A DNA stretch of 64,000 bases from a virus (IMGVR_UViG_3300026549_001031); one strand, 5' to 3'; numbered from the stretch's first letter, positions 14,880 to 45,041 are shown. The notes: generated by a model from the letters alone, not told the origin. Numbers and translations are program-made.

Positions 14880-15761
14880 ATGAAATTTGAAGTCATTATA
14901 GGAAATCCTCCTTATCAAAATAAAAACAAAAGTATTTATCAGAATTTTATTGATTTAGCACTGCAGTTAAGTAACAGACATGTGGTAATTATATCAAAAG
15001 ACAATTGGTTAGTTGGAGATACACTTCAGAATGTAAGAAACCACATTGTAGAGAACGGGTTAGTTTACATACATGACTTTCCTATTAGAAAAGAGATCTT
15101 TAAGGATGCAAATGTTGCAGTGGCAATACTGCATGTAGACAATTATAAAAATAACGATACACATGAGTTTATTTATGAGTGTACTCAGAATGGAGAAACT
15201 AGAAAGAATTTAATAAGACCAATACTTACAAAAGACGGGTATGATATCATTTCAAATGAAGACGAGTACAGTATAGTAAGCAAGGTTACAAGTCATAGAG
15301 ATTTTGAATCATGGAATTTAACAAGAAACATAAGAATTTGGAGTGTGGCAAGTAATGGAAATTACATGCTTACAGACCGAACAGTAGATATTATAAAATA
15401 CACAGATAATAAAGAAAAAGACAGTGACATTAAGGTAATATTCATGAATAGTAAACATGACAGCTATTGTAAATATACAAATGCATTACCTAAAGGAAGA
15501 GATGGCGTTGATGAATATAAAGTTGTCTGTGGAAGTAAGGTGGGTAAGACAGGACAGGTAATAACATCACTATTGATGGTGAGACCTGGTGAAATAGTTA
15601 CTAACTCATATTCAATTATTGCTATAGTACATACAGAATATGAGGCAAATGCAGTGTATAAGTATGTACAGACAAGGTTGTTTAGAGAGTTGGTACATAT
15701 TGGAATTTCAGGAGACAGAGTTTCATTCAGTTACAGCTGTTCAAAATATGTACCTATGTAG
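14880..15761 (+). CDS. divergent 'headless' gamma-class N6-adenine DNA methyltransferase paralog (begins at motif IV NPPY, no SAM-binding motifs X/I)
   Basis: ATG 14880 gives MKFEVIIGNPPY, matching N-termini of paralogs at 18885 and 44097; C-terminal KYVP resembles FRFVP/TaqI RDFVP; track start 14865 is GTG without RBS. Confidence 0.6.
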   Translation: MKFEVIIGNPPYQNKNKSIYQNFIDLALQLSNRHVVIISKDNWLVGDTLQNVRNHIVENGLVYIHDFPIRKEIFKDANVAVAILHVDNYKNNDTHEFIYECTQNGETRKNLIRPILTKDGYDIISNEDEYSIVSKVTSHRDFESWNLTRNIRIWSVASNGNYMLTDRTVDIIKYTDNKEKDSDIKVIFMNSKHDSYCKYTNALPKGRDGVDEYKVVCGSKVGKTGQVITSLLMVRPGEIVTNSYSIIAIVHTEYEANAVYKYVQTRLFRELVHIGISGDRVSFSYSCSKYVPM

Positions 15762-16102
15762 GACTTCACCGAAAATAGTGATATAGATTGGAATAAGAGC
15801 ATAGAGGAAATAGCATGATATGCTTAGCAAGAAATATGGTTTAACAGAGGATGAGGAGAGATACATAGCTAATAAAATAGTAAGCATATAGAAATATGGG
15901 GTTAGCATAGCAGATATAAGATGTTTAGCGCGGGCTGGACAATATGTTTTATAATTTTGCGAGCAGAAAACCCCGATGCTTTAGCATCGGGGATGAATGC
16001 CGCCAGTAGTGTTTGACCCGTATTATGGTTGTACAGTAAAAAGTACAGATTTCAGTAATGCATTAGCCCAGATACTTCTATACTATGTAGGAGGTATTTG
16101 AG

Positions 16103-16516
16103 ATGGCTAATACATATAAGTCAGGCTCTCACAGCAGGTATTTGTTGCAGTATCATCTGATATTCATATGCAAGTACAGAAGAAAACTTTTGGTATATCC
16201 ATCAGTAATTGCAGATATTAAGTCTTTGTCGAGAGAGATATGTAGTCGGCATAATGTTGTCATACACTATATGGAATCCGATAAAGACCATATTCATTAT
16301 ATGATTGAGACGATGCCCAATATTAACCTTGCAGATTTTGTAAAGACCATGAAGTCATATACAACATATCATATATGGCAGAAATATCCTCAGTATCTGT
16401 CTCGGTTCTTTTGGAAAGAGCATACTTTTTGGTCAGACGGGTACTTTTTAGCCACAATAGGTAATGTAAGTCAGGAGACGCTGAAGCATTACATCATTAA
16501 TCAGGGCAAGAAATAA
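16103..16516 (+). CDS. tnpA: IS200/IS605 family Y1 (HuH) transposase TnpA
   Basis: HuH motif HIHYMIE, catalytic Tyr context WSDGYFLATIG, size 137 aa typical of TnpA. Confidence 0.9.
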   Translation: MANTYKSGSHSRYLLQYHLIFICKYRRKLLVYPSVIADIKSLSREICSRHNVVIHYMESDKDHIHYMIETMPNINLADFVKTMKSYTTYHIWQKYPQYLSRFFWKEHTFWSDGYFLATIGNVSQETLKHYIINQGKK

Positions 16517-16541
16517 GAATACATCCGTTCGAGCCTGTATC

Positions 16542-16570
16542 TTGAAAAATAATTAGCTTTAGTATATAAT
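16542..16570 (+). promoter_or_regulatory. sigma-A type promoter inside IS, TTGAAA-N17-TATAAT upstream of tnpB
   Basis: TTGAAA 16542-16547, 17-nt spacer, TATAAT 16565-16570, then AGGAGGTGA RBS and ATG 16606. Confidence 0.5.
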
Positions 16571-16605
16571 TACTATATAGTAATATGAAAAGGAGGTGAC
16601 AAAAG

Positions 16606-17873
16606 ATGTCAGAACCAATATACATAACACAAAGTAATGTCATACGGGGATTATCATCAAAACAGTATCAGGCACTCCGTGAGATGTGCCAGTATTCCAA
16701 TAACCTTTATAATGTTGCTCTTTACAATATCAGACAGTATTTTTTTAGTCAGAACTTGTTTCTGGCTTACGAAAGCAACTACCATGAGTGCAAAACTAAC
16801 GAGAACTATGGTCTTTTACAGGCAGGGGTAGCCCAGCAGACGCTTAAAGTTGCAGATAGAAGTTTTAAGTCGTTTTTTGCTCTGCTCAAAAAATGTGGTA
16901 CAAGTGATTACCGCTATCATGATGTAAAGATACCCCATTACCGTAAGAAGGGTGGGTATTTTAATATTATCTGTTCAGGCAACGCGATAGCAATATCAAA
17001 CGGATATTTCAAAGTGCCGATGAGTCGTGAGTTTAGAAAGATGCATCCCGACGTAAAGGATATACTGATTCCATACCCAGAGCGTCTTAATGGCGGCGTA
17101 GTGAAGGAAGTCCGTATCATCCCTTATGATAATGCAAAGCATTTTAAGATACAGTATGTCGTGTTATGGTACAATGAGCCGAAAAATGTAAATACAGATA
17201 ATTGTATGGCAATAGACATAGGAGTAGACAATCTTACGACCTGCGTTTCCAATGTTGAGACTCCGTTCATAATAGACGGACGTAAACTAAAATCAATCAG
17301 TATTGGAACAAACGAAGGGCGAAACTTCAGTCTATTGCTATAAAGCAGGGACTCTATACCACGCATCAGATAAATGCTCTCAATCATAAACGTAACAACT
17401 GTGTCAACGATTACATTAAAAAGGCAGCACGTATCATCATAAACAACTGTCTTGAGAACCATATCGGCACTCTGTATGTCGGCTACAATAAGGACTTCAA
17501 GCGTTCAGTCAATATGGGCAAGACGAATAACCAGAATTTCGTACAGATACCATTTGGTAGACTTCGTGACCAGTTAAGTTTTCTGTGCTGGACATACGGG
17601 ATAATGTATCAGGAAGTCGAAGAGTCCTATACATCTAAGTCAAGTTTTCTGGATAATGACCCTCTGCCAGGGTATAAAGCAGAACAGTCATATAAAGGTA
17701 CGTTCAGTGGAAAACGCATCCACAGAGGGCTGTATCGTGCATTAGATGGGACTGTAATCAATGCAGACGTAAATGGGGCATATAATATAATGCGTAAAGG
17801 TAAGCAGAACTTCTGTAAGGAAGAACTGTCTAGTGGGCTATTGGAGAGCCCAGTACGGATAGCTATACAGTAA
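16606..17873 (+). pseudogene. tnpB: IS605 OrfB/TnpB (RNA-guided nuclease family) interrupted by a 1-nt frameshift near 17290-17297
   Basis: Frame 1 (16606-17343) reads ...IDGRKLKSI, then frame 0 reads NQYWNKRRAKLQSIAIKQG...IKKAARIIINNC...LYVGYNKDFK...NADVNGAYNIMRKG (canonical TnpB C-terminal RuvC-like blocks); the join needs -1 shift in AACTAAAATCAATC. Confidence 0.8.
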
Positions 17874-18109
17874 TGTACAGTGACTCACGTACAGAATCCC
17901 CTCTGCTAAAGCAGAGGGGAGTTTCAATGTGAAAAATCAGTATGGCTACTTTGAGGTCTGGCAAGTAGGCGGTCTTGTATCAGATATCAATGGTACATTG
18001 ATTGAACATTTGTACAATGTAAGAAAAGTAGCAGGCATCTTTGAATAAAAGAGGACAGCTGAAACGCATGAGCATTTATACAAGAAAAGAAAAATGGAGG
18101 ACAGATAAA

Positions 18110-18391
18110 ATGAGTGAACAGACAACAGAAAAGAAAGTAGATACAGAGGTTAAGAATACAGAGCATCCTGTTTGGAAAGTATTGGACAAGAGTAAGTTTG
18201 TTGAATCAGCATGGAGAGACATTGAGGAAATGTATGATTTCATCAAGGGCATTGTTAAAGTAACGGGTAACACTACTGTAGATGGAAATACAGTACCAAA
18301 AATGAAGGTATTCTTTGATATGTGGAACAACAATAGTAGCGAGGTCTTTTGGATTCTCAATTCACTTGTACATGACAAGGAAGAGCAGTAA
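18110..18391 (+). CDS. hypothetical protein (93 aa)
   Basis: ATG 18110 with AAATGGAGGACAG RBS; track start 18041 is TTG. Confidence 0.4.
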   Translation: MSEQTTEKKVDTEVKNTEHPVWKVLDKSKFVESAWRDIEEMYDFIKGIVKVTGNTTVDGNTVPKMKVFFDMWNNNSSEVFWILNSLVHDKEEQ

Positions 18392-18414
18392 GTAAAGAAC
18401 AGAGGACAGTTAAA

Positions 18415-18888
18415 ATGAAAAGGACAGTTAAGAATAAGTTAGTTACAAAGATGGTTAGTACAATTGCATGCGCAGTTGTACTTTGCACAAGTTTAGTAGG
18501 GTGTGGACTTGAGGATGTATTTACAAGCAGTACAGAGAACACTGAAAGTACAGAAGCTGACTCTGTTACACTTGGGGAGTTACTCAAAGTTGGACAGAAC
18601 GAAACAAAAGAGTTTACTGTAGGTGCAGAGTATAAAGTACTAGACGTTAATTATGCAGGTGCAGACCATATATTTCTGATACTCGCACTGGAGGATGTAA
18701 AAGATTATACAAGAACAGCATACGAAAGAGAACTTGGCTTTAGTAAAAATGACTATCTGTATGAGAGTATAATCAAGGGAGATACAATCAAGTTTACAGA
18801 GAAAAGTGTAGAGATCATTAAGAGTGCTGATGATACAGAGGATAAGGAAACAGATCAGAAAGCAGAAAAGGTAGAACAGCAGAAATGA
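18415..18888 (+). CDS. putative lipoprotein (157 aa)
   Basis: Signal peptide with lipobox LVGC (VVLCTSLVGCGLED); upstream GGACAGTTAAAATG initiation motif; stop overlaps next start (ATGA). Confidence 0.6.
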   Translation: MKRTVKNKLVTKMVSTIACAVVLCTSLVGCGLEDVFTSSTENTESTEADSVTLGELLKVGQNETKEFTVGAEYKVLDVNYAGADHIFLILALEDVKDYTRTAYERELGFSKNDYLYESIIKGDTIKFTEKSVEIIKSADDTEDKETDQKAEKVEQQK

Positions 18889-19781
18889 AATTCAGTGCAG
18901 TGATAGGAAATCCTCCTTACAATAAAGGAATGGATATAGACTTTGCTATTTTAGGGTTTAACTTGACAAGTAAATATATGACACTGATTATTCCTGCTAA
19001 GTGGCAGACATCAGAAAGAGATGGACAAGCAATTAGCAGATATAACTATGGTCAGTTTAGAGACACACTGGTTAAGCATATGAGCACAGTGTGTTTTTAT
19101 CCTGAAAGCAGCAATGTGTTTAGAGCTGCACAGAGTGATGGTATTACATACTTCCTTATTGATAAGGAAAATACATTTAATAAGTGTAAGGTCATTAACA
19201 AATGTGATGAGCAGGCATTATTTAATAATGAATGTACAAGAGAAATAATTAAGCAACAAAGTCTGAATAATTTAGGACAAGAGATAATTGAGTATATGAT
19301 GCCTTATAAATCTTTTAAGTGGCCTAATTTTAATGGTGGGCACTATGAGGTTTGGACAGCTAGAAAGCTATTGACTAGTGGTAATGGTAGGACAATCATT
19401 AGAAAAGATGGCAATACACAGGTAACTCAAAAGGTATTCATATATGATAACTTTAATGGGCAAGGTAATAATACTGCAGACTCATGTCAGGTTTATGCAA
19501 GTGATGATAAATTAAAGTGTGAGTCATTATCAAGTTATTTGAACACTAAGTTTGTAAGATTTTTCGTTCTAATGAATATAAGTAAGCTTACAGGAGTGTG
19601 TACAGACTACTATTATAGATTTGTACCTGAACCTCCTAACAGTGATTATGGGTTTAATCATGTATGGACGGATGAGGATCTGTATGAATATTATGGTCTG
19701 AACAGAGAAGATGCTAAAACAGCAAATGGAATAAGATACAGAGACATTATTGAAACAGTTGTAAAAGACAGAGAAAATTAA
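18885..19781 (+). CDS. 'headless' TaqI-like gamma-class N6-adenine DNA methyltransferase paralog (starts at NPPY motif IV; has IIPAKWQT and YRFVPEPP...WTDEDLYEYY C-terminal TaqI_C-like region)
   Basis: MKFSAVIGNPPYNKGMDIDF at N-terminus; IIPAKWQT matches M.TaqI VPATW block; C-terminal RFVP matches M.TaqI RDFVP; about 50% identical to 44097 and 61846 paralogs. Confidence 0.75.
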   Translation: MKFSAVIGNPPYNKGMDIDFAILGFNLTSKYMTLIIPAKWQTSERDGQAISRYNYGQFRDTLVKHMSTVCFYPESSNVFRAAQSDGITYFLIDKENTFNKCKVINKCDEQALFNNECTREIIKQQSLNNLGQEIIEYMMPYKSFKWPNFNGGHYEVWTARKLLTSGNGRTIIRKDGNTQVTQKVFIYDNFNGQGNNTADSCQVYASDDKLKCESLSSYLNTKFVRFFVLMNISKLTGVCTDYYYRFVPEPPNSDYGFNHVWTDEDLYEYYGLNREDAKTANGIRYRDIIETVVKDREN

Positions 19782-19796
19782 GGAGGACAATAGATA

Positions 19797-20576
19797 ATGG
19801 ATGATTACTTTAACAGTAAGTATTACGCTGCAAATAAGTTAGGAGATAAATGCAGAAACTTGGTAAAGAGAAACATGCCAACAGAGTATATGTACAGTTC
19901 TAGCATATATGAAGGCTTTAAGACGTTTTATGATACATTTGATAGTGAGCTTACAGGTCTTGTACTTTGTCTTATGGACTCTGAAGATGTAAAGTATGAG
20001 AAAGAGATGCAGAGACTTGCATGCGAATATGCACTTAAAATGGCAGTGAGATACAGTATAGTTGCTTATGGACTTCCAGAGAATCCTTTTACCAGCACAA
20101 CACATGAGCATATGATAGAATCAGAATGCAAGGAATTAAATATGAAATACATTCCTTATGAAAAAGACAAAGAGGAAATATATAAGGAATTATTAGCAGG
20201 GTTAAACATGGATGAGAGAAAGCAGGCACTTTGGGCTTTATGCAAGGTATACTTTACTAAAGCAGTAAAAGACTTGGAGAAAGTTCACGTTTGCTGTAAT
20301 GTTAACTGGCAAACAGCAGTTTATTTTTATGAGCATGAGTTTAAGCCAGCAGACATTAAAATTGATGTAGACAACTGGGCTAAAATAGCATATTTAACAA
20401 CTTTGACAAATAAGTTGATTGATAAGTACATTGATACAGATAGAGATGTGCAGGTAAGTACAAAGCAGATGCTTGATAAAGCACACGAGCATGTTAACAA
20501 GTATATGGGTGAGTGTGGTATGGATTTTGGTTTCAAAGTTGTAGACATTGCCTTTACAGGAGTTCATCATAACTAA
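19797..20576 (+). CDS. hypothetical protein (259 aa)
   Basis: ORF with AAGGAGGACAATAGATA RBS. Confidence 0.55.
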   Translation: MDDYFNSKYYAANKLGDKCRNLVKRNMPTEYMYSSSIYEGFKTFYDTFDSELTGLVLCLMDSEDVKYEKEMQRLACEYALKMAVRYSIVAYGLPENPFTSTTHEHMIESECKELNMKYIPYEKDKEEIYKELLAGLNMDERKQALWALCKVYFTKAVKDLEKVHVCCNVNWQTAVYFYEHEFKPADIKIDVDNWAKIAYLTTLTNKLIDKYIDTDRDVQVSTKQMLDKAHEHVNKYMGECGMDFGFKVVDIAFTGVHHN

Positions 20577-21026
20577 AAAAATGGATATGCATTGACTGAT
20601 GAGCAGTATGAAAAAATAGATATGCAGTAGAAATAAATTCTACAAATTATAGAAATGTAAATCTTAAATGATAAATGAAAGGTTGAGGATATAAAAGATG
20701 ATAAACTAACGAAAATACAATACAGGACAGTTAAAATTGAAATCAACATGTGTTTTTAAGTGAGATTTGCATGGACTAAAAATTGGATGAGCAGTGGGGT
20801 TATTTTTGAGGTAGGCATTGTTCTAAAAATTATGTAGAAAATTTTGGTAAAACGAGAGAAAGGGAAAGAAAGTGGAAAAATGAAATCAGAATTTAACAAA
20901 AAGATAATTATGATTGCACAGAGGTAATCACCCGTATCATTAAGATTGCAGATAATAGCACTAAGGTACGATATGTTTATCAGTGGTATTAAGGAAGTCA
21001 GATAAAAGTAAATAATTAGCATAAAA

Positions 21027-21069
21027 TATAGACGTAATACACAGGATAGTTTAGCATATTACGTCTATA
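21027..21069. promoter_or_regulatory. 13-bp perfect inverted repeat (TATAGACGTAATA-N17-TATTACGTCTATA), candidate operator
   Basis: Arms 21027-21039 and 21057-21069 are exact reverse complements; sits 12 nt upstream of -35 of promoter at 21081-21109. Confidence 0.45.
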
Positions 21070-21080
21070 CTTTTAGGGTA

Positions 21081-21109
21081 TTGTATTAGTTATAGTTTTA
21101 TGATATAAT
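21081..21109 (+). promoter_or_regulatory. sigma-A type promoter TTGTAT-N17-TGaTATAAT
   Basis: TGATATAAT extended -10 at 21101-21109, then AAAGGAGGACAT RBS and ATG 21151. Confidence 0.5.
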
Positions 21110-21150
21110 AATTATAGATTGAAAAAGAGAAAAGGAGGACATCTTAAAGT

Positions 21151-22257
21151 ATGGGAATACTTAACGTTAAAAAAGAAACTGCTATGTCTAATATTAGTAA
21201 TAGACAGTACCATGTCGAAGTGGTTGATAGAGATAACAACCTTCTTGGTTGGGAAGTACATACTCCATTAGAAGAGGTACAGGGATACAATAAACTTATT
21301 AACCTGGCAAAATCACTTGGAGCGCATAGTGTAAGCGAGGATACAGATATCACATGGTTTATGCCTTTTGAGCATAATGATGAGAGACCTGTTGGAACAG
21401 ATGAGACAAAGAAAAGTTGTGTATCAGCATTCAGTAACAAAGAGGCAGCAGCTGAATACACCATTAAAAAGTGTATTTGCAACATGGTTAGTAGTTTTCT
21501 CAGGCTTCATGATGAAATGAAGTTTGACACTATTGTTGGATTTGATCGTGTACAGTATAAGAGAGGTACACTGTTCAATGAGGCAGAAGGGTATAAGATT
21601 TTCGCTAACAAAGATGGAAAATTCATGGTGGACAGTACAAGTAAGCTGGTAGCATTTGTAATGATCAGTTTAACAGACTGTGATAATGAAACACGTACAG
21701 TAAGAGTGGAACTTGACAGAAAGTCAAGGACAGGTAGTAAGATTCAGGCTGAGCGTAAGGTAAATATGTTTAACTCTGCTGATGGTGTAAATTACTATAC
21801 AAAAACAATGATCAGCCTGGCAGGTGCATTCTTTGGTAAAATGAGAGATGCATTGGATGGTTTTGACCTGCTTAATGGTGCAGTCATTACAGAAATGAAT
21901 GTGCGTCATGGAAAGACACTGGACGTTTCAAAACCTAAACTGTCAGACTTCAATGCAAGAGTGACAGTAATGGGTTACAATGATCATATCAAAGCAACAA
22001 AGATTGTCAAGGTTGTTAAGTTGACAGGCATTGATATATTGATTGCTGAGCCTGAAGAAAAGAGTTCAGACTATGTAGCTATGAAGGACAAGCTTATGGA
22101 TAAGCTTGGTGAGGCATATGATGAGAGAGTGACAGCAGGTGTGATTTGTGAGGAGTCTGGAAACTATGAGACAAAGTTAAGGAGCGTTAACAATGGTTCA
22201 GTAGTCCTGAGTGATTATGATACAGAGTTGTTTTCTCAGGTAACAGACATTTACTAA
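21151..22257 (+). CDS. hypothetical protein (368 aa)
   Basis: ORF with AAAGGAGGACATC RBS behind promoter. Confidence 0.55.
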   Translation: MGILNVKKETAMSNISNRQYHVEVVDRDNNLLGWEVHTPLEEVQGYNKLINLAKSLGAHSVSEDTDITWFMPFEHNDERPVGTDETKKSCVSAFSNKEAAAEYTIKKCICNMVSSFLRLHDEMKFDTIVGFDRVQYKRGTLFNEAEGYKIFANKDGKFMVDSTSKLVAFVMISLTDCDNETRTVRVELDRKSRTGSKIQAERKVNMFNSADGVNYYTKTMISLAGAFFGKMRDALDGFDLLNGAVITEMNVRHGKTLDVSKPKLSDFNARVTVMGYNDHIKATKIVKVVKLTGIDILIAEPEEKSSDYVAMKDKLMDKLGEAYDERVTAGVICEESGNYETKLRSVNNGSVVLSDYDTELFSQVTDIY

Positions 22258-22291
22258 CAGAGAAACTGCATGAGAGGAGGTGGGATTAGAC

Positions 22292-22522
22292 ATGCAGGAT
22301 TTAATGTTTAACTATTCAACAGAGGATGGTGAACGTGAAACAAAAGAGTACAGTACAATCATGGACTTCCTTGACGACGTTGAGAGCGGTGCAATGGATG
22401 ATGTACTTGAGTGTGATGATGTTAATGCAGAGTTCTTTGAGAACGAACTTAACACTAAACACTTTGATACAGTGAATGATCTTTACACACATTGTTGTAA
22501 GATTGTTGGACAGGAAGATTAA
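22292..22522 (+). CDS. small acidic hypothetical protein (76 aa)
   Basis: ATG 22292 after GAGAGGAGG; track start 22280 is GTG abutting RBS. Confidence 0.45.
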   Translation: MQDLMFNYSTEDGERETKEYSTIMDFLDDVESGAMDDVLECDDVNAEFFENELNTKHFDTVNDLYTHCCKIVGQED

Positions 22523-22582
22523 AAGCAGTTAGACAAAAATTGTTTAACATAGGACAGTTAAAGTAGAGAGGACATAGTGGAA

Positions 22583-23797
22583 ATGGGAAGTACCAGACAG
22601 AGTGATACATATAAAGGTGTAGTAAGGGTCATTGATGAGTTGTCAGGAGACAAACTTTGTGTGGCAACAGTCAATAATAAAGGTTACCTTAATTATGTAA
22701 AGGGCAGTAAGGACAGTAGAGCAGGTGCTTTTACTATTTATGTGAAGGACAAGGAGACTTGCAAGGCAGACTGTGATATCTTAAAACACAATTTGATTAA
22801 CTATTTAAGACATAAGAGTTATGATACTGACATTGATACACATGGAGAGTCAATATTCAGTTTAATCAATAACAATGATCAGTCATGTGTACTTATTGAC
22901 CCGAAAGAGTCATTATTCTACAGACTTATTGTTTGTGAAAACAAATCATCTGTGGAACATACATCTACAATGGAGGCTGAATTTGGGAAGGATACAATAA
23001 GGTTCGGATTAAGAACACCTGCAAATGTTGTAGGTAGTATTGTACCTGATGAATCAGCACCAAATCACAAAGACATGTATCGTTATGTGTCTAACATGAT
23101 TAATTTTGTTGATCTTGGTATTGTATGCAATCAGAGTAAGGGATCAAATACAATGAGTGGTAAGTTACAGTTTAGATATCATGGAAAGAGCAATGATGAT
23201 TGTATCGGGAACATTCCTGAGTTTACAAGGAATACAACCTTCATGTGGGCGTCGTCTAAAGATTTTGAGAAGGCATATACTTGGTTGGACTCAACAATTG
23301 ATGAGTTATGGAAGCATATTATCACATCAGTAAGTCTTGTACTTGAGCTCGACCGCATTTCAATTAAGCCTGATGAGAATATGGCAGACATCTGTGTTAT
23401 TACAGATACACGATTGAATAGATCACTAAACATGAAGGTTGCTGTATTAGCAAGTATGATCGAGCATGGATTAAGAGTGGACTTAAGTCATACAGAGAAA
23501 AAGTGTGGTACAGCTGGAAATAAATCTTTACAGGATAACAGATTCAATGACATCATGGATGAGTTAAAGAAGCTATCTAATCAGCAGAATGGTTCTGAAG
23601 AGAGCTTTCGTGTTGAAAAGGTGGATTCATATAAAGCAGATGTAACAGACATATATAGTGTAGATGTGGCGCTTGATTCAAATTGGAAAAGCTGTCTTAT
23701 TCATGGCGTTAACAATAACATCACAGATAGATTCTATAAGGGAGATTTAGAGATGCTTAAGAAATATGGTAATCTCAACATTGAGTATGTAGATTAA
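22583..23797 (+). CDS. hypothetical protein (404 aa)
   Basis: ATG 22583 after AGAGAGGACATAG; track start is GTG. Confidence 0.55.
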   Translation: MGSTRQSDTYKGVVRVIDELSGDKLCVATVNNKGYLNYVKGSKDSRAGAFTIYVKDKETCKADCDILKHNLINYLRHKSYDTDIDTHGESIFSLINNNDQSCVLIDPKESLFYRLIVCENKSSVEHTSTMEAEFGKDTIRFGLRTPANVVGSIVPDESAPNHKDMYRYVSNMINFVDLGIVCNQSKGSNTMSGKLQFRYHGKSNDDCIGNIPEFTRNTTFMWASSKDFEKAYTWLDSTIDELWKHIITSVSLVLELDRISIKPDENMADICVITDTRLNRSLNMKVAVLASMIEHGLRVDLSHTEKKCGTAGNKSLQDNRFNDIMDELKKLSNQQNGSEESFRVEKVDSYKADVTDIYSVDVALDSNWKSCLIHGVNNNITDRFYKGDLEMLKKYGNLNIEYVD

Positions 23798-23820
23798 TCA
23801 AAGGAAATTGGAGGCAAGAC

Positions 23821-35344: not shown

Positions 35345-35439
35345 CATAAGAGAATGAAATATGCTTATTGGATTTAGGTATAATAAGCATATTGTAATGT
35401 TTGGATATACAGTAATAGTTTGACATATGTAATACAGAC

Positions 35440-35830: not shown

Positions 35831-35891
35831 ATAATTAGCATAAAGAGTATTAAATAATAAATTTATTTATTTTATTTAGGAGGATTGACTT

Positions 35892-37295: not shown

Positions 37296-37317
37296 AAATA
37301 GTTTGGAGGACAGCTGA

Positions 37318-39045
37318 ATGGACTTTAGTATCATAGAGGCAGATGATAAATACATAGGTGGAGATAGATATGTACTTATAGACAATGATAGTATAATGGA
37401 GTTTGACACAGTAGATGAATTTGTCAGCATGGCTAGGAAAGTTAGTAGACTTAACAATATAGTGCTTGGCAATCTGAGTTTGCTAGCACATACACTTATT
37501 GAAAGATATAGGCCTAGATACAATAAGAGTTTATCACTAAAGAGTTTATTTGTTCAGTTGAAATCAGAGGACTGTACAAGCATAGAACTGGAAAATACAT
37601 TCAGAAGTTTTGCTGAACTTAAGATAATATATGATATACTTATGGGAAGATATCATAGACATATGAAAGAATTCTTCCTGCATAATAAAAATAGAAAGGT
37701 TGACACTCTTTACATAAGGGATGCGTTGGAATATGTGAAAATTAGCACTGGTATTAAAAACTGGGCAGACAGTAATGAGGTTTATGCAAGTAGCAGAGAA
37801 CTAAAAGCAATGAGTTTAATTGAGCATGCATATAATATTGAGCATATAAACAAGAAGATTGGCATTGACTTTGATGTAGTGTATCAGCATGGAATTGATA
37901 CAGGCAGCATATTGGGGGATGTGCAAGTTGTACCCGGTGAAGTCATAGGATTTCCTGATGATGCTAGCAACTGGTTTGTAAGGAGTGTATCACTAGGTAT
38001 TGGGGATAAACAGGTGCCGATTGGTCAAGCAGCATATAATACTGTTACACATGAAAAGGTGTTCACTTCAGACAGTGATCAACCTGGTAGCATTTATTAT
38101 AAACCTTCGTATCATGGAGACTATATAATAAGTCTTATTGGTTCTAATTTGGAACAGTTGAACTTTAAGGTTGATGGATATGTAATACATATAAAACCTA
38201 TGGATATACTTAGGGATAAAGCAGGTAATACAGGGTTTTATGATGTGTTTAGCAAGGAAAGAAAGGCAAGACTTGTAAGAAATAATCATTTTGTAGGATT
38301 TGAAAGCCTTGAGGAAACATTAAATGCATTTAACAGTAATGTTGAGATCTTAGGTGCTTTTAAATTAGGTTTATTAACAAATATACACTTATTTAAGGAT
38401 AAGATCATGTATATATTTAATAAGGAACAGCTGCTAAAGAAGATAGTATCATTTAATGAATTACTTGACAGTGGAGAGACAGTAGATAGCTTAAATAATA
38501 GAAGGTACAGCATACTAGAAGACTATGTGGTACATGCAAGAGCAGTAGTAGAGGCATATCAATTATATAGTATACTTACTGATACAAAGAGAGGATTAAG
38601 AATATTAAGAGGGCTTCCTGATAACTACATATTTTCAATGAATCCATCATTATGGGGAAATATTGAGGGCAATGTAGTAGAAGGAAACAGCAGTGGAGAA
38701 GCAAAGTTTAGTCAACTAGATTGCAGTATACACAATGGTAGAGAAATTGAAATCTCTGATATAATAATGAAGGACATACTGGATGAAAGCGAGTACATTG
38801 ATTATAAAAATAGTTTAGACAAGTGGACAGCTAATAATAGAATTGGACACAATGATAAATTGAATAAGTCATATGTAATTGCAGCATATAACATTTATGT
38901 AAAATTTAAGGCTATGTATGATAATTATTTAGCACGAGTAGGGTATTCAAGGTTACCTTTGGAAGATATAAAGACATTGGATAGTTTAAGGGTAAAAGAG
39001 TTTGGTAGATTGAACTCTCATGGAAAAGTGATGATACAAGAATAA
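37318..39045 (+). CDS. hypothetical protein (575 aa)
   Basis: GGAGGACAGCTGA RBS. Confidence 0.6.
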   Translation: MDFSIIEADDKYIGGDRYVLIDNDSIMEFDTVDEFVSMARKVSRLNNIVLGNLSLLAHTLIERYRPRYNKSLSLKSLFVQLKSEDCTSIELENTFRSFAELKIIYDILMGRYHRHMKEFFLHNKNRKVDTLYIRDALEYVKISTGIKNWADSNEVYASSRELKAMSLIEHAYNIEHINKKIGIDFDVVYQHGIDTGSILGDVQVVPGEVIGFPDDASNWFVRSVSLGIGDKQVPIGQAAYNTVTHEKVFTSDSDQPGSIYYKPSYHGDYIISLIGSNLEQLNFKVDGYVIHIKPMDILRDKAGNTGFYDVFSKERKARLVRNNHFVGFESLEETLNAFNSNVEILGAFKLGLLTNIHLFKDKIMYIFNKEQLLKKIVSFNELLDSGETVDSLNNRRYSILEDYVVHARAVVEAYQLYSILTDTKRGLRILRGLPDNYIFSMNPSLWGNIEGNVVEGNSSGEAKFSQLDCSIHNGREIEISDIIMKDILDESEYIDYKNSLDKWTANNRIGHNDKLNKSYVIAAYNIYVKFKAMYDNYLARVGYSRLPLEDIKTLDSLRVKEFGRLNSHGKVMIQE

Positions 39046-39065
39046 GATAAGGTAGGACAGTTAAA

Positions 39066-40526
39066 ATGGTAGGAATACATAAATCAGCATTTAGACCTTG
39101 CATGGATAAAGTGAATGGAGTCTTAAGATTAAGAAAAATTAGCACAGATACAGAGGATCTAGCAGGAGAGAAAGTAAATGACAATAACTATACAGATTAT
39201 AGCACTATTGATGAAATGTTTGATAGTTTTAGATCAGACAATAGGGTTGTAACCCAGTTTATGTGCAGAACATGTGATATAGTTTACAGAATAGTTGAAG
39301 CATACAGGGATAAAAACAATGCATATATCATGGAGCATACAGAATATCATAAGGACTTATTAGAGTTAGCATATAGGTGGTATGCATGGGAATCACTTAA
39401 AAGCAAAGACAAGTGTGTAAAGACATACTTTAGAGAAGATATGACACCTGAGAGAATAGTAGACAAGGAGAGCAGAAGATATAAGCTTGCAGCAACAGTG
39501 AAGGACAAGGGTGAAAAATTAAGGGTACTTGGTATTTGGAGTAGTGTACCTAGTGAATATGAAGCTGACATTAAGAAAGAAGTGGTTCAGCATTACTTTG
39601 GAATAGAAAGCAGTAATGATGAATTGTTTATACTTAGTGCAGTTAAACTTGCAAGAGAGATTGATAAGGACTTCTACAATAAAGGGGTTAATCTTGGTTT
39701 GGTTTATGATCACACAATAGAGTCTGGGTTGCAAATTATCAAAGGAAGATACCTTGACATTAACACTAGTAGTCGTATAGTATTATGTGAGTTGTTTGCT
39801 AGTGATGGAGTAAACAAGTTCTTTATTGGTATAGCTGAATGGCATGGGCTAATGACTAACCTGCTTAGTGTATATCAGCAATTTGCAGTACGTATTGGTG
39901 GAAAGACATATGATATATCATCACCAAGCATTACTCATATGAACAAGCGCTATTCAAAGTTTTTACATGCAGACACTTATGGTCTATTGTCAGATAGGGG
40001 AGTAAGGGTAACGTATGACACAGCTGATGAGGCACTTACAGCAATAAGAGAATGCAGTAGTTTTGTTTCTGTTACACATAATCATTTGATGCTGGCATGT
40101 GGAGAGTTCTTTAGAACATTTAAGGATGTAAATCAAGAAGAAAGTAAATTTAGAGAATACATATATGGTACTACTAAATACTCCGATGATGCAGGAGATA
40201 TACTTCATTATTTACTAGGGTCATATGTAGAAAATTATGTATTAACATATGAGAATACTGACATGGCATTGGAGGTAGCACATGAGGCAGGGTTTATTAT
40301 GTGTAATAAACAGGGTTTTTGCCTTGAGTTTCCAGATATAGAGGATGCATACATAGGTGATAAAATACTTGAGCAGTGGTTAACAAAAGATGAGCTTAAG
40401 AAATTAAGGACAAGTGACAGGGATAGAGAGATGCTATGGCTTGCAGCTTATAGGATTGCAATGAATCTTAGGACAGAATACATGAAATATTCTGAAGTTA
40501 TGAGTGACTCGTGGGATAGACTTTAA
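39066..40526 (+). CDS. hypothetical protein (486 aa)
   Basis: GGTAGGACAGTTAAAATG initiation motif. Confidence 0.6.
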   Translation: MVGIHKSAFRPCMDKVNGVLRLRKISTDTEDLAGEKVNDNNYTDYSTIDEMFDSFRSDNRVVTQFMCRTCDIVYRIVEAYRDKNNAYIMEHTEYHKDLLELAYRWYAWESLKSKDKCVKTYFREDMTPERIVDKESRRYKLAATVKDKGEKLRVLGIWSSVPSEYEADIKKEVVQHYFGIESSNDELFILSAVKLAREIDKDFYNKGVNLGLVYDHTIESGLQIIKGRYLDINTSSRIVLCELFASDGVNKFFIGIAEWHGLMTNLLSVYQQFAVRIGGKTYDISSPSITHMNKRYSKFLHADTYGLLSDRGVRVTYDTADEALTAIRECSSFVSVTHNHLMLACGEFFRTFKDVNQEESKFREYIYGTTKYSDDAGDILHYLLGSYVENYVLTYENTDMALEVAHEAGFIMCNKQGFCLEFPDIEDAYIGDKILEQWLTKDELKKLRTSDRDREMLWLAAYRIAMNLRTEYMKYSEVMSDSWDRL

Positions 40527-40593
40527 GTAGGACATTGGTATCAAGAGGAAGAGTATTTTAATTAAAATTTGTTTGGTTTGGAGGCATATAGAA

Positions 40594-41184
40594 ATGGGCA
40601 GTAAGAAAGCAAAAAGACTCGCTAAAAGAATGGCACAGCAGGCTGGTTTAGAGTCAGCATTTGAGGATGAAAGTATTGACATGGGGAATGAAAACGTAAG
40701 CAGTATGGGAGTTACTAGCTTTGATGAGGTTGCATTAGATAGAGGAATAAAAGCACTTGTAGATAAAAGAATCAAGAAAGTTTGTAAGAAATACAATGAG
40801 GATGAGCCTCTGGACATTCAGGGAATTAGGAATGAAATTGGGGCATATGCAGCTACACATACAGTTAAGCATTGTAGTTTAGTAGGAGCAGAGTTTGAGA
40901 CACTTGATGACTTTTTATCTTATGTGGAGTCATTAAAAGGTTGCTCAGTGTTTGTAGAACAGCATGAGGAATATATTGCAGCAGACACAACTGGATTGAG
41001 TGATAGCATTTCTGAATATGTGGATAAGGCAATCAGAAAGAAAGGTTTAACCTTTGATATGGTAACTTTCAGTACAGGTGATGCATATATTAGAATTAAG
41101 AGCAGAGAGAAGAAATATGGACTTAATAAGTTAGGTAAGAGACTCATTGATGATATATACACTATGGGATTGTATGAGTCATGA
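40594..41184 (+). CDS. hypothetical protein (196 aa)
   Basis: ATG 40594 after GGAGG (40579-40583); track start 40573 is TTG. Confidence 0.55.
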   Translation: MGSKKAKRLAKRMAQQAGLESAFEDESIDMGNENVSSMGVTSFDEVALDRGIKALVDKRIKKVCKKYNEDEPLDIQGIRNEIGAYAATHTVKHCSLVGAEFETLDDFLSYVESLKGCSVFVEQHEEYIAADTTGLSDSISEYVDKAIRKKGLTFDMVTFSTGDAYIRIKSREKKYGLNKLGKRLIDDIYTMGLYES

Positions 41185-41300
41185 GATAGAATGTACCAAA
41201 TCAGTGAAGAAATGGGAGCAGACACAGGTAAAATCATTTGAACATAGTAATGTTAAGGTAGTTGCATAGTAAAATAAAAAGAAATTTCGTTAAGAATTTA

Positions 41301-41340
41301 AGACAAGCATTGAGTTAAAAAGTGCTTGTCTTATTTTGTG
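41301..41340 (+). terminator. Rho-independent terminator (9-bp stem AGACAAGCA/TGCTTGTCT, 13-nt loop, T-rich tail)
   Basis: Exact 9-bp inverted repeat 41301-41309 / 41323-41331 followed by TATTTTGTG. Confidence 0.6.
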
Positions 41341-41354
41341 CTTTGTGATATAAT
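41326..41354 (+). promoter_or_regulatory. promoter with extended -10 TGaTATAAT (weak -35 TTGTCT overlapping terminator stem)
   Basis: TGATATAAT 41346-41354; followed by GGCAGGAGG RBS and TTG 41398. Confidence 0.45.
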
Positions 41355-41397
41355 ACTATTATAGGAAAATTAGAATTGTTGGGCAGGAGGAATAAAT

Positions 41398-42720
41398 TTG
41401 GCAGACAGTAATAAAAAGAAGTTAAACATAGAGTTTAAGGATGATACAATACTGGTAGGACAAGCATACACAGATGTAAATGACTTGTATGTGGACCTTA
41501 ACTTAGATAATGAGGTCATAGCATATATTGTAGGTTGCATGGCAATAAATGCATGGAGATTAAGAAAGCACATTGAAAACATTGAGTACAAGCAGAGAAT
41601 GTTGTCTGCATGGACACTTTGGAGGGTACTCGAGGGTTGTTTAGAGGAGGAACTTGACTTCATCTTTGCAGTCACAGATGAAAATGATAATTACATTGGA
41701 GTTAAGACACTTATAGGATGGAGTGACATTGAGACAGTAGGAAAATACATAAATGATGGAAAGATGAGCACTGACAATCCTAGATATGTCATGAATGCAA
41801 TACTGTCAGAGTGTGAAAGTAATGGAGTGGTGCTTAGTAAATTATGTGAAAGAGACAATGGTAGATACGGGATATACTATGATAAGTTTATAAGTGTACC
41901 TAATGGTTCAGGTGCAGAGTGGAGATATAAGGTGAGACTTGACTCACATGGAACTAACATTGGTTTAGAGAAATTGATCAACAGTATTGAATTTTATTAC
42001 ATTCCTGGTGTTACAATAAATGCAAGTATGACTTTACAAAAAGATATAACTGACATGTGCCATGAAGGTATGGCATTTGAGATGATGCATAATGGCAAGG
42101 TAGAAACATTTAATCTCTATGATTTGTTGATACCTGACCCTGATGATGTAAATATGACAGTGCAAGATGATTTAGACCACTTTATGGTTGATGATATTAC
42201 AAGATTTAAAAGGTTTATATACACAGTTACATTTGGTGATTACATTTCATATAGGAGATGTAGCAGTGTTATAACAAGTCACAACAGACTTAATTTCTAT
42301 TCAGACTTGCTTAGTGCATTAAGAAATTGGACTGACTTTGATCTTCTCAACTCTGCAATTGTATTAAAATACATGAACTATTTGCTTTACTACAAGCTAG
42401 ATATCAATAGAGCTATTAAGTTGGCAAAAGAGACAGGCGGTTTAGTTTTGGATAACATACCTAAACAAGGATTCTACTTTGTTGGAGAGAATGAGTGCAT
42501 GACACAAACAACTAGGATGAGTGTAGTAATTAGTGATGAACCAGATATTTCTTTAAGAAGGCTTGCAAGTTATGATGGATTTACACTTAAAGAAGATGAG
42601 GGAGAAACCAGTTTATTGTATAGGGTGCTTAAGAGATATGAGTCAGAAGCAATGAAATGGATGAATGACCCTTGTAATAAATGGGTTATTAGCAAGTACT
42701 ATAAAGATGGCATATTATAG
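41398..42720 (+). CDS. hypothetical protein (440 aa), tandem paralog of 42735 gene
   Basis: TTG start with AGGAGG RBS; shares IAYIVGCMAINAWRLRKH / FISVPNGSGAEWRYKVRL blocks with next gene. Confidence 0.55.
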   Translation: MADSNKKKLNIEFKDDTILVGQAYTDVNDLYVDLNLDNEVIAYIVGCMAINAWRLRKHIENIEYKQRMLSAWTLWRVLEGCLEEELDFIFAVTDENDNYIGVKTLIGWSDIETVGKYINDGKMSTDNPRYVMNAILSECESNGVVLSKLCERDNGRYGIYYDKFISVPNGSGAEWRYKVRLDSHGTNIGLEKLINSIEFYYIPGVTINASMTLQKDITDMCHEGMAFEMMHNGKVETFNLYDLLIPDPDDVNMTVQDDLDHFMVDDITRFKRFIYTVTFGDYISYRRCSSVITSHNRLNFYSDLLSALRNWTDFDLLNSAIVLKYMNYLLYYKLDINRAIKLAKETGGLVLDNIPKQGFYFVGENECMTQTTRMSVVISDEPDISLRRLASYDGFTLKEDEGETSLLYRVLKRYESEAMKWMNDPCNKWVISKYYKDGIL

Positions 42721-42734
42721 TTGGAGGAAATGGC

Positions 42735-44060
42735 ATGAGGTTTAATAGTGATAACAATACAGTATGGTTTGACAAGAATTTTAAAAACATTGGTGAGGCA
42801 TATGCATTTAGTAGAAACAACAATGAAATTATATCATTTATAGTTGGTATTATGTGCATCAGCGCTTGGAGAAGATACACCTGTGAGAAGATGGAGTATG
42901 CATATGAAAGATTGCATGAATATGAGAATAAATATACAGGGCTTATGCTGGCAGCTAAAAATTGCTATGAGGCATTGATAGGTGTGACTGCAAGCATAGC
43001 AGGAATGCATAGACATTTTATATTTACTAAAACATCTGGTAGAGTAAAAGGCATTAAGATTGAAGCATGTCAGCTTGATACAACATTCACAAGCTCTGCA
43101 GAAATAGCTAGTACAATGAATAAAATAATTCTACAGTGTTATAAGAAAAACATCAGGTTGGGAAGTGTATTTGAGCGTAACAATGGAGAGAAAAGCATTG
43201 TATGGGATAGGTTTATTTCAGTACCTAAACATGGTGGACAGTGGTTATTTAAGTTGAAGGCAACATCCAGTAAAAGACCTGCATTTGCATATTGGGTAAA
43301 TCAGCAAATGTTTACACTTGCAGAGGATGCTGAATACATTGAACCTGTGGGGTGTGAAAAAGTAAACTTACTTGGTGGAACAGATAAGCCTTTTGTAGCA
43401 GTGAAGTACAGTGGAAAATGTGAAATAATCAATACAAATGATGCTGCACTGCCTAGTCCATTAGACATAGGTGTTAGAGTATTTAGACCTGGTGTGTTGG
43501 AAAATGGCATGTTTGGAAAAGACTATAGAGAAGAGGCAATTACATTTAATACAGCTAGAGACTTTATTCTTTATTTAAGGGCGTATCCAGAAAAGGTAAG
43601 AGACACTTGTGATCAATTTTACACAGCAATTTATAATGCAGCTTATTGTTTGTATACAGGTAAAGGGTTTGCTGACTACAATAGTGTAAGGTATTATTAC
43701 TTTAGATATTTATTATTTACAAGATTAGGTATTGATATGGCTTGTAAATTGGGAAAGAATACAGGATGTATAAGCACTAAATTCAAAATTAGAGATGCTA
43801 TAACATTTGGTGATGGACCTGAAGGCTATATGGTGGACATTGGAACATATGACCTGGATGAGAACATGAATGCAGACATTGCTCATCTTGCAGCATATGA
43901 GGGATTTGAAATATCTGGGGATCCTTTAGATCAGCTGAAACAGCTTATAACATACTATGCTGATACAGTGAATAATTGGTGCACATATTGGGGTTTAGCA
44001 AATACAGGTGTGCTATATAAATGGCATGAGGTTGGTTCTGACTGTTTATATTTTAAGTAA
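42735..44060 (+). CDS. hypothetical protein (441 aa), tandem paralog of 41398 gene
   Basis: GGAGGAAATGGC RBS; ISFIVGIMCISAWRRYTC / FISVPKHGGQWLFKLKAT blocks aligned with upstream gene. Confidence 0.6.
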   Translation: MRFNSDNNTVWFDKNFKNIGEAYAFSRNNNEIISFIVGIMCISAWRRYTCEKMEYAYERLHEYENKYTGLMLAAKNCYEALIGVTASIAGMHRHFIFTKTSGRVKGIKIEACQLDTTFTSSAEIASTMNKIILQCYKKNIRLGSVFERNNGEKSIVWDRFISVPKHGGQWLFKLKATSSKRPAFAYWVNQQMFTLAEDAEYIEPVGCEKVNLLGGTDKPFVAVKYSGKCEIINTNDAALPSPLDIGVRVFRPGVLENGMFGKDYREEAITFNTARDFILYLRAYPEKVRDTCDQFYTAIYNAAYCLYTGKGFADYNSVRYYYFRYLLFTRLGIDMACKLGKNTGCISTKFKIRDAITFGDGPEGYMVDIGTYDLDENMNADIAHLAAYEGFEISGDPLDQLKQLITYYADTVNNWCTYWGLANTGVLYKWHEVGSDCLYFK

Positions 44061-44096
44061 TTTGTGGTATAATAGAGGTAGGAAAAGAGGAACAAG

Positions 44097-45041
44097 ATGA
44101 AATTTAGTATTGTCATTGGAAATCCTCCTTATAACAAGGGGATGGATATAAATTTCATACAGATAGGATACAAGATCAGTAGAGAGGTTTGTTGCATGAT
44201 AGTTCCTGCAAAGTGGCAAACAGCAGATGATGAGTACAGTGGGACAAATTATGCTAACTTTAGAAAAGAAATAGTTCAGCATATGAAAGAAGTGGTATTT
44301 TATCCTTGTAGCAAGGATATCTTCGATATATTACAAGTAGATGGAATTACATACTTCTTATTAGACAAAGAGGTACATGAGAAATGTCTAGTGTCTAACA
44401 GATGTAGTGTGTATAAAACACTAGAAAGTGATGGAATATACAGAGATATAAGAAACAGACAGAGTTTATTAAACTTTGTTGACAATATAATAAATAGACT
44501 TGGGCAGTATGAGAAATTTAGGTTCAATCATATAAGTATGGGCAGCAGGTTCAGAGTTTATATGAACAATAAGGCAGGTGGTGGAGCGTTTGCAAGTGCA
44601 GACATAACAGAGGGATGTAAGGATAGGGAAACTAGAAAAGTGTTCTTTACAGGTGCAAGTTATATAGAGGACACTTTGGGAATAGATAAGACATGTGGGA
44701 TTCATAGAGAGAATAGGACAGCTGAACAGTTAGTTTTTACATCAGACAGTAAGGAAGAATGTGAGAACTTTATAATGTATTTGAATACAAGGTTTGTTCA
44801 GATGTTACTTTCTGGAAATCAGAGTAAACTTAGTTGCATTTTGACAGATGATTGTTTCAGGTTTGTACCTAGCATTGAAAATGAAATTGGTACAGATGGG
44901 AAAATAGGGTACCAACATAAGTGGACTGACGAGGAATTATATGAGAAATATAACATCACAGAGAAAGAACAGAGAGACATTGAAAGTTATGTAAATAGAC
45001 GTGAGAATTATGGATTGATGAAAGAGAAAGATGGTGAATAA
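44097..45041 (+). CDS. 'headless' TaqI-like gamma-class N6-adenine DNA methyltransferase paralog (starts at NPPY)
   Basis: Own extended -10 TGGTATAAT (44065-44073) and AAAGAGGAACAAG RBS; MKFSIVIGNPPYNKGMDINF, IVPAKWQTAD, FRFVPSIEN...WTDEELYEKY. Confidence 0.75.
   Translation: MKFSIVIGNPPYNKGMDINFIQIGYKISREVCCMIVPAKWQTADDEYSGTNYANFRKEIVQHMKEVVFYPCSKDIFDILQVDGITYFLLDKEVHEKCLVSNRCSVYKTLESDGIYRDIRNRQSLLNFVDNIINRLGQYEKFRFNHISMGSRFRVYMNNKAGGGAFASADITEGCKDRETRKVFFTGASYIEDTLGIDKTCGIHRENRTAEQLVFTSDSKEECENFIMYLNTRFVQMLLSGNQSKLSCILTDDCFRFVPSIENEIGTDGKIGYQHKWTDEELYEKYNITEKEQRDIESYVNRRENYGLMKEKDGE

Follow-up and report, generated by a model that had tools for sequence, protein, structure and literature searches.

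Methyltransferase-like genes that begin at motif IV in a large gut mobile element, and a predicted internal start in their full-length relatives

Results

Headless methyltransferase genes in the window

The window analysed here, a 64,000-nt stretch of the viral sequence IMGVR_UViG_3300026549_001031, carries four genes related to Eco57I/TaqI-like DNA methyltransferases (MTases), three of which encode only part of the enzyme. We refer to motifs IV–VIII together with the target-recognition domain (TRD) as the body, to the N-terminal half that binds S-adenosylmethionine (SAM) as the head, and to proteins made of a body only as headless. The headless genes are h1 (open reading frame [ORF] 14880), h2 (ORF 18885), and h3 (ORF 44097), and the gene at 61846 is called the fourth copy (Table 1). 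Their interest lies chiefly in a conserved, predicted internal start that full-length relatives carry where headless proteins begin, and in the modularity of head and body.

As the preliminary description of this sequence had stated, all three ORFs start at motif IV, each beginning MKF..IGNPPY with NPPY at residues 9–12. In h2 the NPPY is followed by PAKWQT, a variable TRD core, and an FRFVP...WTDEDLY tail. None of the three can be extended 5′, because stops, different frames, or unrelated genes lie directly upstream. For h1 the upstream extension is at most five codons, to a GTG, and its frame differs from that of the preceding gene. The h2 start overlaps the stop (ATGA) of an unrelated 157-aa lipoprotein-like gene, and h3 is preceded by four in-frame stops. 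The upstream stops and different frames also ruled out fusion to, or read-through from, upstream ORFs, and no motif X or I was found in frame upstream of any of the three genes.

An individual ribosome-binding site (RBS) had been claimed for every headless gene. This holds for h1, with a Shine-Dalgarno (SD)-like GAGGTG, and for h3, with the SD sequence AAGAGGA ~7 nt before its ATG, but not for h2, where we found only a weak AAGGTAG ~13 nt upstream. Translation of h2 is probably coupled to the upstream gene. The extended -10 element proposed for h3 was recovered as a promoter-like site (Table 1).

Table 1 Coordinates of features in the window and of related features at other loci. Positions without a locus label refer to the window.
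Feature	Coordinates	Strand	Description
h1	14880-15761	+	Headless body, type-2 Eco57I-like family (IIGNPPYQ); start MKFEVIIGNPPYQ
h2	18885-19781	+	Intact headless body, 298 aa, type-1 family; start MKFSAVIGNPPYN
h3	44097-45041	+	Intact headless body, 314 aa, type-1 family; start MKFSIVIGNPPYN
Promoter-like site ahead of h3	44045-44073	+	TTTATA-17-TATAAT with upstream TG (TTTATA-17-TGnTATAAT); consensus match only
Fourth copy, part 1	61846-62721	+	N-lobe (residues 1-139) and C-lobe; stop caused by frameshift
Internal SD of fourth copy	62244-62251	+	AAAGGAGA
Internal ATG of fourth copy	62263-62265	+	At the headless-start position
G7 homopolymer	62684-62690	+	Point of reading-frame loss in fourth copy
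Fourth copy, part 2	62685-63185	+	TRD and C-terminal tail; called as ORF 62748-63185
Head-only genes at other loci	L096:5264-5998, L097:5260-5997, L101:3146-3829		
Head-only genes at other loci	L102:3349-4011, L103:3349-4008, L105:3759-4385		
HD-domain, FtsH-like, DnaJ-like series	6575-11394; L003:2039-7973		Same order at both loci; FtsH-like AAA+/M41 protease with transmembrane N-terminus
IS200/IS605-type insertion	15953-17927		Between h1 and h2
Subterminal hairpin of insertion	15971-15992		CCCCGATGC-TTTA-GCATCGGGG
Subterminal hairpin of insertion	17898-17919		CCCCTCTGC-TAAA-GCAGAGGGG
tnpA of insertion	16103-16516		
tnpB of insertion	16606-17343, 17514-17873		Broken, two frames
Tandem ORFan paralogs	41398-44060	+	Two of ~440 aa
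Tandem ORFan paralogs	45348-46733	+	Two of ~225 aa
Tandem ORFan paralogs	49097-56787	+	Five of 340-400 aa
Tandem ORFan paralogs	57960-58895	+	Two of 152 aa
Low-complexity protein gene	59992-61518		508 aa

Domain content and predicted structure

The three headless proteins belong to two families. h2 and h3 are type-1, and h1, which is only ~19% identical to them, belongs to a separate Eco57I-like family (type-2) and is damaged in the window, so the preliminary grouping of all three as one set of paralogs does not stand. Pfam Eco57I (PF07669) matched h1–h3 from profile position 73 of 171, which corresponds to motif IV (E-values for the three ORFs 7e-9, 4e-4, and 4e-7). Pfam TaqI_C (PF12950) matched only h2, below its 26.5-bit cut-off (E = 0.003, 18.2 bits), and a probable TaqI_C-like TRD is supported by the conserved FRFVP...YTDEELY tail and by whole-chain fold matches to CamA and M.TaqI. 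The AlphaFold2 model of h3, built from a 35-sequence alignment, had a predicted local distance difference test (pLDDT) score of 85.8 and contained strands and helices at E3-8 (beta4), H16-27 (helix D), E28-37 (beta5), E63-69, and E84-90, followed by a second domain. Foldseek comparison of this model with the PDB returned CamA, BrxX/PglX, M.TaqI, and HsdM. PF07669, the model, and these fold matches agree with the original assignment to a gamma-class Eco57I/TaqI-like C-lobe plus TRD, and the profiles placed the proteins in this family and not in an unrelated one. An NCBIfam search of the bodies assigned no family, and a PDB sequence search gave only a marginal match to METTL5.

The model of the fourth copy's 291-aa product (pLDDT 89.9) supplied the comparison with a protein that has a head. 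It placed beta1 at 44-46, beta2 at 85-89, and beta3 at 113-115, followed by two helices, Met140, and beta4 at 142-147, and its fold matches were CamA, HsdM, and the Type ISP enzymes, which are gamma-class N6-adenine MTases. The 139-aa N-lobe contains motif X (VFTPENVV) and motif I (LDICSKSGRFL), neither of which is in h1–h3. This confirmed the earlier statement that the gene at 61846 carries the N-lobe that the others lack, although the gene is not full-length as had been described but split by a frameshift. Motifs X, I, II, and III were all absent from h1–h3, and an N-lobe hidden Markov model (HMM) searched against the window matched the fourth copy only.

The headless proteins begin two residues before beta4 and are without three of the seven strands (beta1–beta3). 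Judged from the models, they are predicted to keep the target-adenine pocket and the TRD and to have no SAM-binding motif beyond the contribution of motifs IV/V. Without the SAM-binding half, h1–h3 are homologues of the family and not complete MTases. N9, P10, Y12, F20, and F76 were invariant in 35 headless proteins and PAKWQT was nearly invariant. F20 corresponds to the SAM-contacting F146 of M.TaqI, as aligned by eye, and F76 to M.TaqI F196.

A conserved, predicted internal start in full-length genes

The position at which headless proteins begin is marked in full-length members of both families. The residue eight before NPPY was Met in 79/86 type-1 full-length proteins; two of the exceptions had Val, and in others the Met was shifted by one residue. 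Two further full-length genes, seen as DNA, carried GTG at the internal-start codon. Among type-2 full-length proteins, Met occupied the internal-start position in 46/48 distinct contexts.

We examined the sequence ahead of this codon in 42 full-length type-1 genes retrieved as DNA from genome, viral, and metagenome scans, 31 of them at <80% identity. Anti-SD pairing was scored over 17 nt ending 4 nt before the internal codon, with all other codons of the same genes as controls. The anti-SD duplex at the internal start averaged -9.2 kcal/mol and reached -6 or better in 31/31 genes, compared with a mean of -2.25 at control codons, 1.1% of which reached the site median. An internal SD lay 9–13 nt upstream of the Met codon in all 31 non-redundant genes, and the duplex of the fourth copy's internal SD, AAAGGAGA, was -11.5 kcal/mol. 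The purine-rich SD core is written in different codon registers and through different residues: K-E-F as AAG GAG, Q-G-A-F as cAA GGA Gca, A-E-G-V as GCG GAA GGG, and R-R-S-F as AGG AGG. In all listed instances of Lys-Glu the Lys codon was AAG, which makes up ~39% of Lys codons in the rest of the genes. The varied registers and residues and the AAG bias point to conservation at the level of RNA. We conclude, by inference from these patterns, that full-length genes contain a putatively functional internal ribosome-binding site and start, from which a short isoform is probably made.

The exact N-terminus shared by the three genes had been taken as an argument for selection on a motif-IV-initiated protein. 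Its cause lies instead in the conserved internal Met and SD of the full-length family, with which any loss of the head yields the same N-terminus. One such loss was observed directly. The syntenic relative of the element, the 464,735-bp human-gut contig ORTT01000003.1, has orthologues of all four copies (L084, L016, and L069), and the 370 nt at window positions 61849-62218, which encode the N-lobe, are precisely absent from L069. The L069 body ORF is intact, at 307 aa; its start is the internal ATG, which is likewise preceded by AAAGGAGA. The fourth copy and L069 together display the head-loss step.

Intermediate states were found at other loci, with 10–33 leftover N-lobe codons in L014, L015, L022, and L033 and frameshifted or broken N-lobes in L001, L025, L045, and L061. 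Upstream of gp277 of the cultured Tenacibaculum jumbo phage PTm1 (L151:2532-4035; NC_049340.1 193472-194975) lies an unannotated, stop-interrupted N-lobe remnant, TVTPEIVTDKIINSLP...LLDISAKQGEF; gp277 itself (344 aa, annotated 'DNA methyltransferase') is a headless type-2 body. Such upstream remnants indicate that many of the 'headless' entries in databases are decay products, which h2 and h3 are not.

Selection, decay, and distribution of headless genes

The same remnants raise the question of whether all bodies are decaying MTase remnants that share an N-terminus only as the internal Met is the first in-frame ATG left. Remnant or frameshifted N-lobes upstream of bodies at L001, L014, L015, L025, L045, L061, L067, and in PTm1 fit this explanation, genes of this family tend in general to be broken in metagenomes, and two of the four genes in the window are themselves damaged. 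In h1, TAG replaces CAG at 15759-15761 and a 1-nt insertion follows closely; the gene is without the last 43 aa of its intact 336-aa orthologue (L084:679-1689). Its C-terminal tail, ...DFTENSDIDWNKS...GLTEDEERYI, is still readable in two frames (15759-15830), so the inactivation looks recent. An alternative genetic code for this TAG was rejected: TAG ends 22/72 genes in the window, read-through would be incoherent, and a frameshift follows. In the fourth copy the frame is lost at a G7 run, after which the shifted frame stays open as far as 63185. The sequence of the relative at this position is one base longer and not a homopolymer. The 291-aa product that results is modelled as a complete catalytic domain without a TRD, and the G7 tract, in a genome of 35% GC, may represent either an inactivation that has become fixed or a site of phase variation. 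Assembly error, which the preliminary description had raised as a way in which its observations might fail, and read error were rejected, as the exact h2 protein recurs on 7 public contigs and the exact 291-aa product on 5.

Decay is largely refuted for h2 and h3, and as an account of the headless bodies we regard it as very unlikely. Neither h2 nor h3 has an upstream remnant; unrelated genes abut them and RBS or promoter signals precede them. Between window and relative, the ratio of nonsynonymous to synonymous substitution rates (dN/dS) was 0.11 for h2 (L084) and 0.115 for h3 (L016), and 0.08 for the shared part of h1, at dS of 0.3–0.5. h2 and h3 are selected genes, not debris. A rough neighbour-joining tree of C-terminal parts contained one deep, diversified clade of ~18 sequences, almost entirely headless and with invariant catalytic-pocket residues, that includes h3 and proteins from contigs of 119–465 kb; across the tree the state changed between full-length and headless at least 17 times. 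Further evidence against decay comes from L003, a 465,594-bp contig distantly related to the element, where a headless homologue 43% identical to h3 lies at a similar place, after a series of HD-domain, FtsH-like, and DnaJ-like genes, as h1 does in the window. The claim that the window holds genuine genes and not 5′-truncated fragments is borne out for at least h2 and h3 by dN/dS and the deep headless clade; h1 carries 3′ lesions in the window. The HD/FtsH-like/DnaJ-like series keeps its order between the window and L003, which suggests a module conserved within the element family.

With several copies in one element that share a conserved 5′ block and differ in their TRD cores, the bodies might also be silent cassettes from which TRDs are swapped onto the full-length gene, giving phase-variable specificity in the manner of an hsdS shufflon or of pglX. 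Full and truncated MTase genes are known to undergo programmed inversion with each other (PMC9881135), and this counts in favour of such a role. All copies in the window are in direct orientation, however, and 4–47 kb apart, their 5′ ends are ~65% identical as DNA with a longest shared run of ~14–15 nt, and every copy has a start and RBS of its own, with purifying selection acting on its ORF. No recombinase is adjacent, and the only mobile-element gene nearby is part of an IS200/IS605 insertion absent from the relative. We consider cassettes extremely unlikely.

Headless proteins are widespread. Among the 120 best homologues of h3, 32 were 280–320 aa long and started M.F..(V/I)(V/I)GNPPY, and the remainder were 404–510 aa, bar a few of intermediate length; homologues of h1 fell into the same two length classes. 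The MTase family also has a relative on a 249,770-bp IMG/VR contig. The proteins are already in databases as MTases, under the NCBI name 'Eco57I restriction-modification methylase domain-containing protein', and existing profiles accommodate them: h1 aligns to PADLOC PDLC03375 ('MTase_II', 348 positions) from profile position 10 onward, and h3 to PHROG 11371 from position 2. Full-text literature searches, in which coverage of subscription journals is incomplete, returned no account of MTases initiated at motif IV, of the head-only family described below, or of the internal start. The preliminary description had proposed an undescribed family; the proteins are common in databases and annotated as MTases, and what survives of that proposal is that no paper was found treating them as a class.

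A 6.2-kb type-1 cluster on a 362,352-bp contig (L087:25-6220) contains one full-length and two headless genes, the latter with TTG starts and one of them frameshifted. The same locus has a 460-aa ORF combining GIY-YIG and an N-lobe, which shares 11 nt with a body ORF in a different frame and, together with that body, could be a split or frameshifted nuclease-MTase fusion.

Head-only genes and probable split enzymes

Separate heads exist outside the element. In Lactobacillus bombicola and on related contigs, a 244-aa head-only protein ends 2 nt before a headless type-2 gene of 331–344 aa. The head contains GEVFTP (motif X), EPSAGEGAF (I), IYGIEL (II), and GNTL (III) and no NPPY, and the operon continues after head and body with a 1,117-aa ResIII helicase and a GmrSD protein. 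Head and body (P0160) align to residues 21-106 and ~180-512, respectively, of full-length type-2 enzymes, and the start of the body at motif IV is common to L096, L097, L106–L111, L120, and the window genes. From these alignments, the adjacent head and body of Lactobacillaceae appear to be a natural split MTase. Pairs of head and body also occur on IMG/VR contigs, one of them 268,054 bp long (L120).

The head-only family, named 'methylase' at NCBI, returned 4,990 hits. Head-only genes adjoin type-1 genes at L001, L021, L039, L042, L068, and L085. In bacteria and on plasmids, head-only proteins of 210–245 aa are encoded directly upstream of a headless or full-length Eco57I-like MTase accompanied by a ResIII/T5orf172 helicase. 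This arrangement of MTase with helicase or T5orf172 in bacterial type-2 operons recalls the DnmA(YeeA)-YeeB-YeeC context (PMC9973331).

Orphan head-like ORFs of 150–213 aa with no body nearby were present on many IMG/VR contigs of 13–125 kb and one of 329 kb (L112–L121, L125, L130–L148), the mirror image of the headless bodies. In L123 and L144 the body ORF precedes and overlaps the head ORF.

Interpretation of the headless bodies

We tentatively favour the reading that the body is the DNA-recognition and catalytic-loop subunit of a two-piece MTase whose head is supplied in trans; on the sequences it is plausible, and we hold it with a little less than even confidence. Under this proposal bodies would arise repeatedly from full-length genes by way of the conserved internal RBS and a start two residues before beta4, and, as an autonomous translation unit, a body would continue to be expressed after the 5′ ~420 nt are lost. 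Alone, it would recognise its DNA sequence and flip the target adenine into the pocket without methylating it. A SAM-binding head would come from the element, outside the window, or from the host; head and body would assemble and methylation would result. Differing in their TRD cores, h2, h3, and the fourth copy would then also differ in specificity. A partner acting in trans was among the possibilities listed in the preliminary description, and the head and body pairs elsewhere make it a legitimate one, although none lies in the 64-kb window.

Several observations weigh against a two-piece enzyme. N-lobe and head-only HMMs and motif regular expressions found no head-only gene or second N-lobe in the window, and no head lay within 3–10 kb of the orphan bodies on the large contigs L003, L016, L019, L069, L084, and L099. 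A type-1 N-lobe query against 1.84 billion representative proteins yielded no coherent stand-alone type-1 head family, the short matches having heterogeneous, junk-like ends. The one type-1 head in view belongs to a gene with a frameshift, and the relative has lost it, which also undermines the earlier suggestion of one catalytic head shared by swapped specificity subunits. Head-only genes precede full-length type-2 MTases as well (in Moraxella, on a Sphingopyxis plasmid, and in metagenomes), so the head-only protein appears to be a component in itself and not merely a detached half. Constraint on V21, G24, T36, and P61, each conserved to at least 90% among full-length proteins, is loosened in the deep headless clade, and residues 1–45 and the C-terminal tail are relatively less conserved in this clade than in full-length proteins, which is not so for the TRD core and pocket. 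Such relaxation is expected from loss of contact with a head, and the greater depth of the clade could contribute to it. Finally, internal initiation is itself predicted from sequence conservation alone. A weak tblastn match of a body C-terminus at 59543-59653 was rejected as a chance similarity within an unrelated secreted-protein gene.

Some of these points speak for a different role, in which the bodies are non-catalytic, SAM-independent DNA binders that hold a flipped adenine in the NPPY pocket. They could then counter restriction by occluding sites, serve as readers or regulators, or compete in a dominant-negative manner with host Eco57I-like, BREX PglX-like, or DnmA-like enzymes. The lack of a head near orphan bodies in every large-contig context examined is in line with this, as are the closest relative, which has lost the only type-1 N-lobe but kept that body intact, and the pattern of relaxation, in which residues 1–45 and the C-terminal tail may be those facing the N-lobe while the adenine pocket is invariant. 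The conserved internal start likewise implies that a body is useful separately even beside a complete enzyme. On the other hand, invariance of NPPY and F20 exceeds what plain DNA binding would need, the operons of head and body show that a body can be part of an enzyme in two pieces, and stoichiometric occlusion of sites would be costly. We know of no non-catalytic site-occluding activity for any MTase fragment, and this too counts against such binders. As the main rival to the two-piece enzyme, we think this role possible and lean against it.

A broader reading is that Eco57I/TaqI-like MTase genes are systematically two-product, through the internal SD and ATG, and that SAM-blind bodies dock onto separate heads. 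Huge gut phage-like elements would have kept only the bodies, borrowing heads, possibly those of the host, for new specificities, or blunting restriction or BREX non-catalytically. We rate this reading as unlikely; if true, it would represent an undescribed modular organisation of N6-adenine MTases and a counter-defence strategy.

Relation to known systems

The bodies resemble M.TaqI and CamA in NPPY, a PAKW/VPATW-type strand, an adenine-stacking Phe, and a TRD with an FRFVP...TDEELY tail, and these enzymes are among the best fold matches. They differ in being without beta1–beta3 and motifs X and I–III, so that the SAM pocket cannot form, and identity is 10–17%. The pairs of Lactobacillaceae defence islands and of IMG/VR contigs have the same M(K)F..IGNPPY boundary and the same C-lobe and TRD, and h1 is in the same broad type-2 family. 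In those pairs, however, the head abuts the body, usually together with a ResIII/T5orf172 helicase or GmrSD, whereas the window bodies are orphans with unrelated neighbours.

Naturally split MTases are known among the C5 enzymes, where the two polypeptides of M.AquI (alpha/beta) and of M.EcoHK31I must assemble one catalytic domain. These belong to another MTase class, are split after motif VIII or have motif IX separate, and have adjacent halves. To our knowledge, no split between motifs III and IV of an N6-adenine enzyme has been described. Short isoforms from internal starts include Inh versus Tnp of Tn5, ClpB, and IF2, in which the short form can modulate or partner the long form; here internal initiation is deduced from conservation, and the short form is in addition a stand-alone gene. 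The bacterial type-2 operons resemble DnmA-YeeB-YeeC, MmeI-like, and BREX PglX systems in placing an Eco57I/MmeI-like MTase beside a superfamily 2 (SF2) helicase or T5orf172, and BrxX was among the top fold matches of the h3 model. DnmA, MmeI-like, and PglX enzymes are large single-chain MTases with heads of their own, and the window contains no such helicase or nuclease partner, so the resemblance is one of context only.

DNA MTases are normally treated as single catalytic domains, and half-proteins are labelled as MTases by annotation, by REBASE-style motif assignment, and by defence-system finders. If the bodies need a separate head, specificity and catalysis would be modular; a single head might then work with several bodies that each bear a TRD, and orphans carried by phages might use host heads. 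If they act alone, they would constitute a class of enzyme-derived proteins that flip bases at specific sequences. In either case, many annotated bacterial MTase genes are predicted, from the conserved internal start, to encode an additional, hidden short isoform.

The element and its other genes

The window has 34.7% GC, nearly all genes on one strand, mostly ORFans, several tandem paralog families, and no tRNAs. Relatives of the element are human-gut contigs of 465–483 kb, which besides ORTT01000003.1 include ERZ27244629 k141_140062 (465,594 bp) and ERZ1643247 NODE_4 (483,036 bp), and the element is roughly 465 kb. Contigs of 0.2–1 Mb are among those with the exact h2 protein. Homologous MTases occur in Lachnospiraceae, Roseburia, and Oscillibacter, which suggests a host within Clostridia; cultured strains with a full-length gene include Oscillibacter valericigenes An890 and Roseburia zhanii BX1005. 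Pieces of the window had no DNA or protein match among 50,697 phage records, a window-specific protein had no relative in IMG/VR, and no phage structural or conjugation gene was recognised among the 10 largest window proteins scanned.

The IS200/IS605-type insertion between h1 and h2 is absent from the 464,735-bp relative and has a hairpin near each end (Table 1). The tandem ORFan paralogs had no Pfam or PHROG match among those scanned. The 508-aa protein encoded at 59992-61518 has an acidic N-terminal region, and its C-terminal ~400 residues form a low-complexity repeat rich in Cys, Gly, Ser, and Lys (CKGSCKG, CNTSCTGSC).

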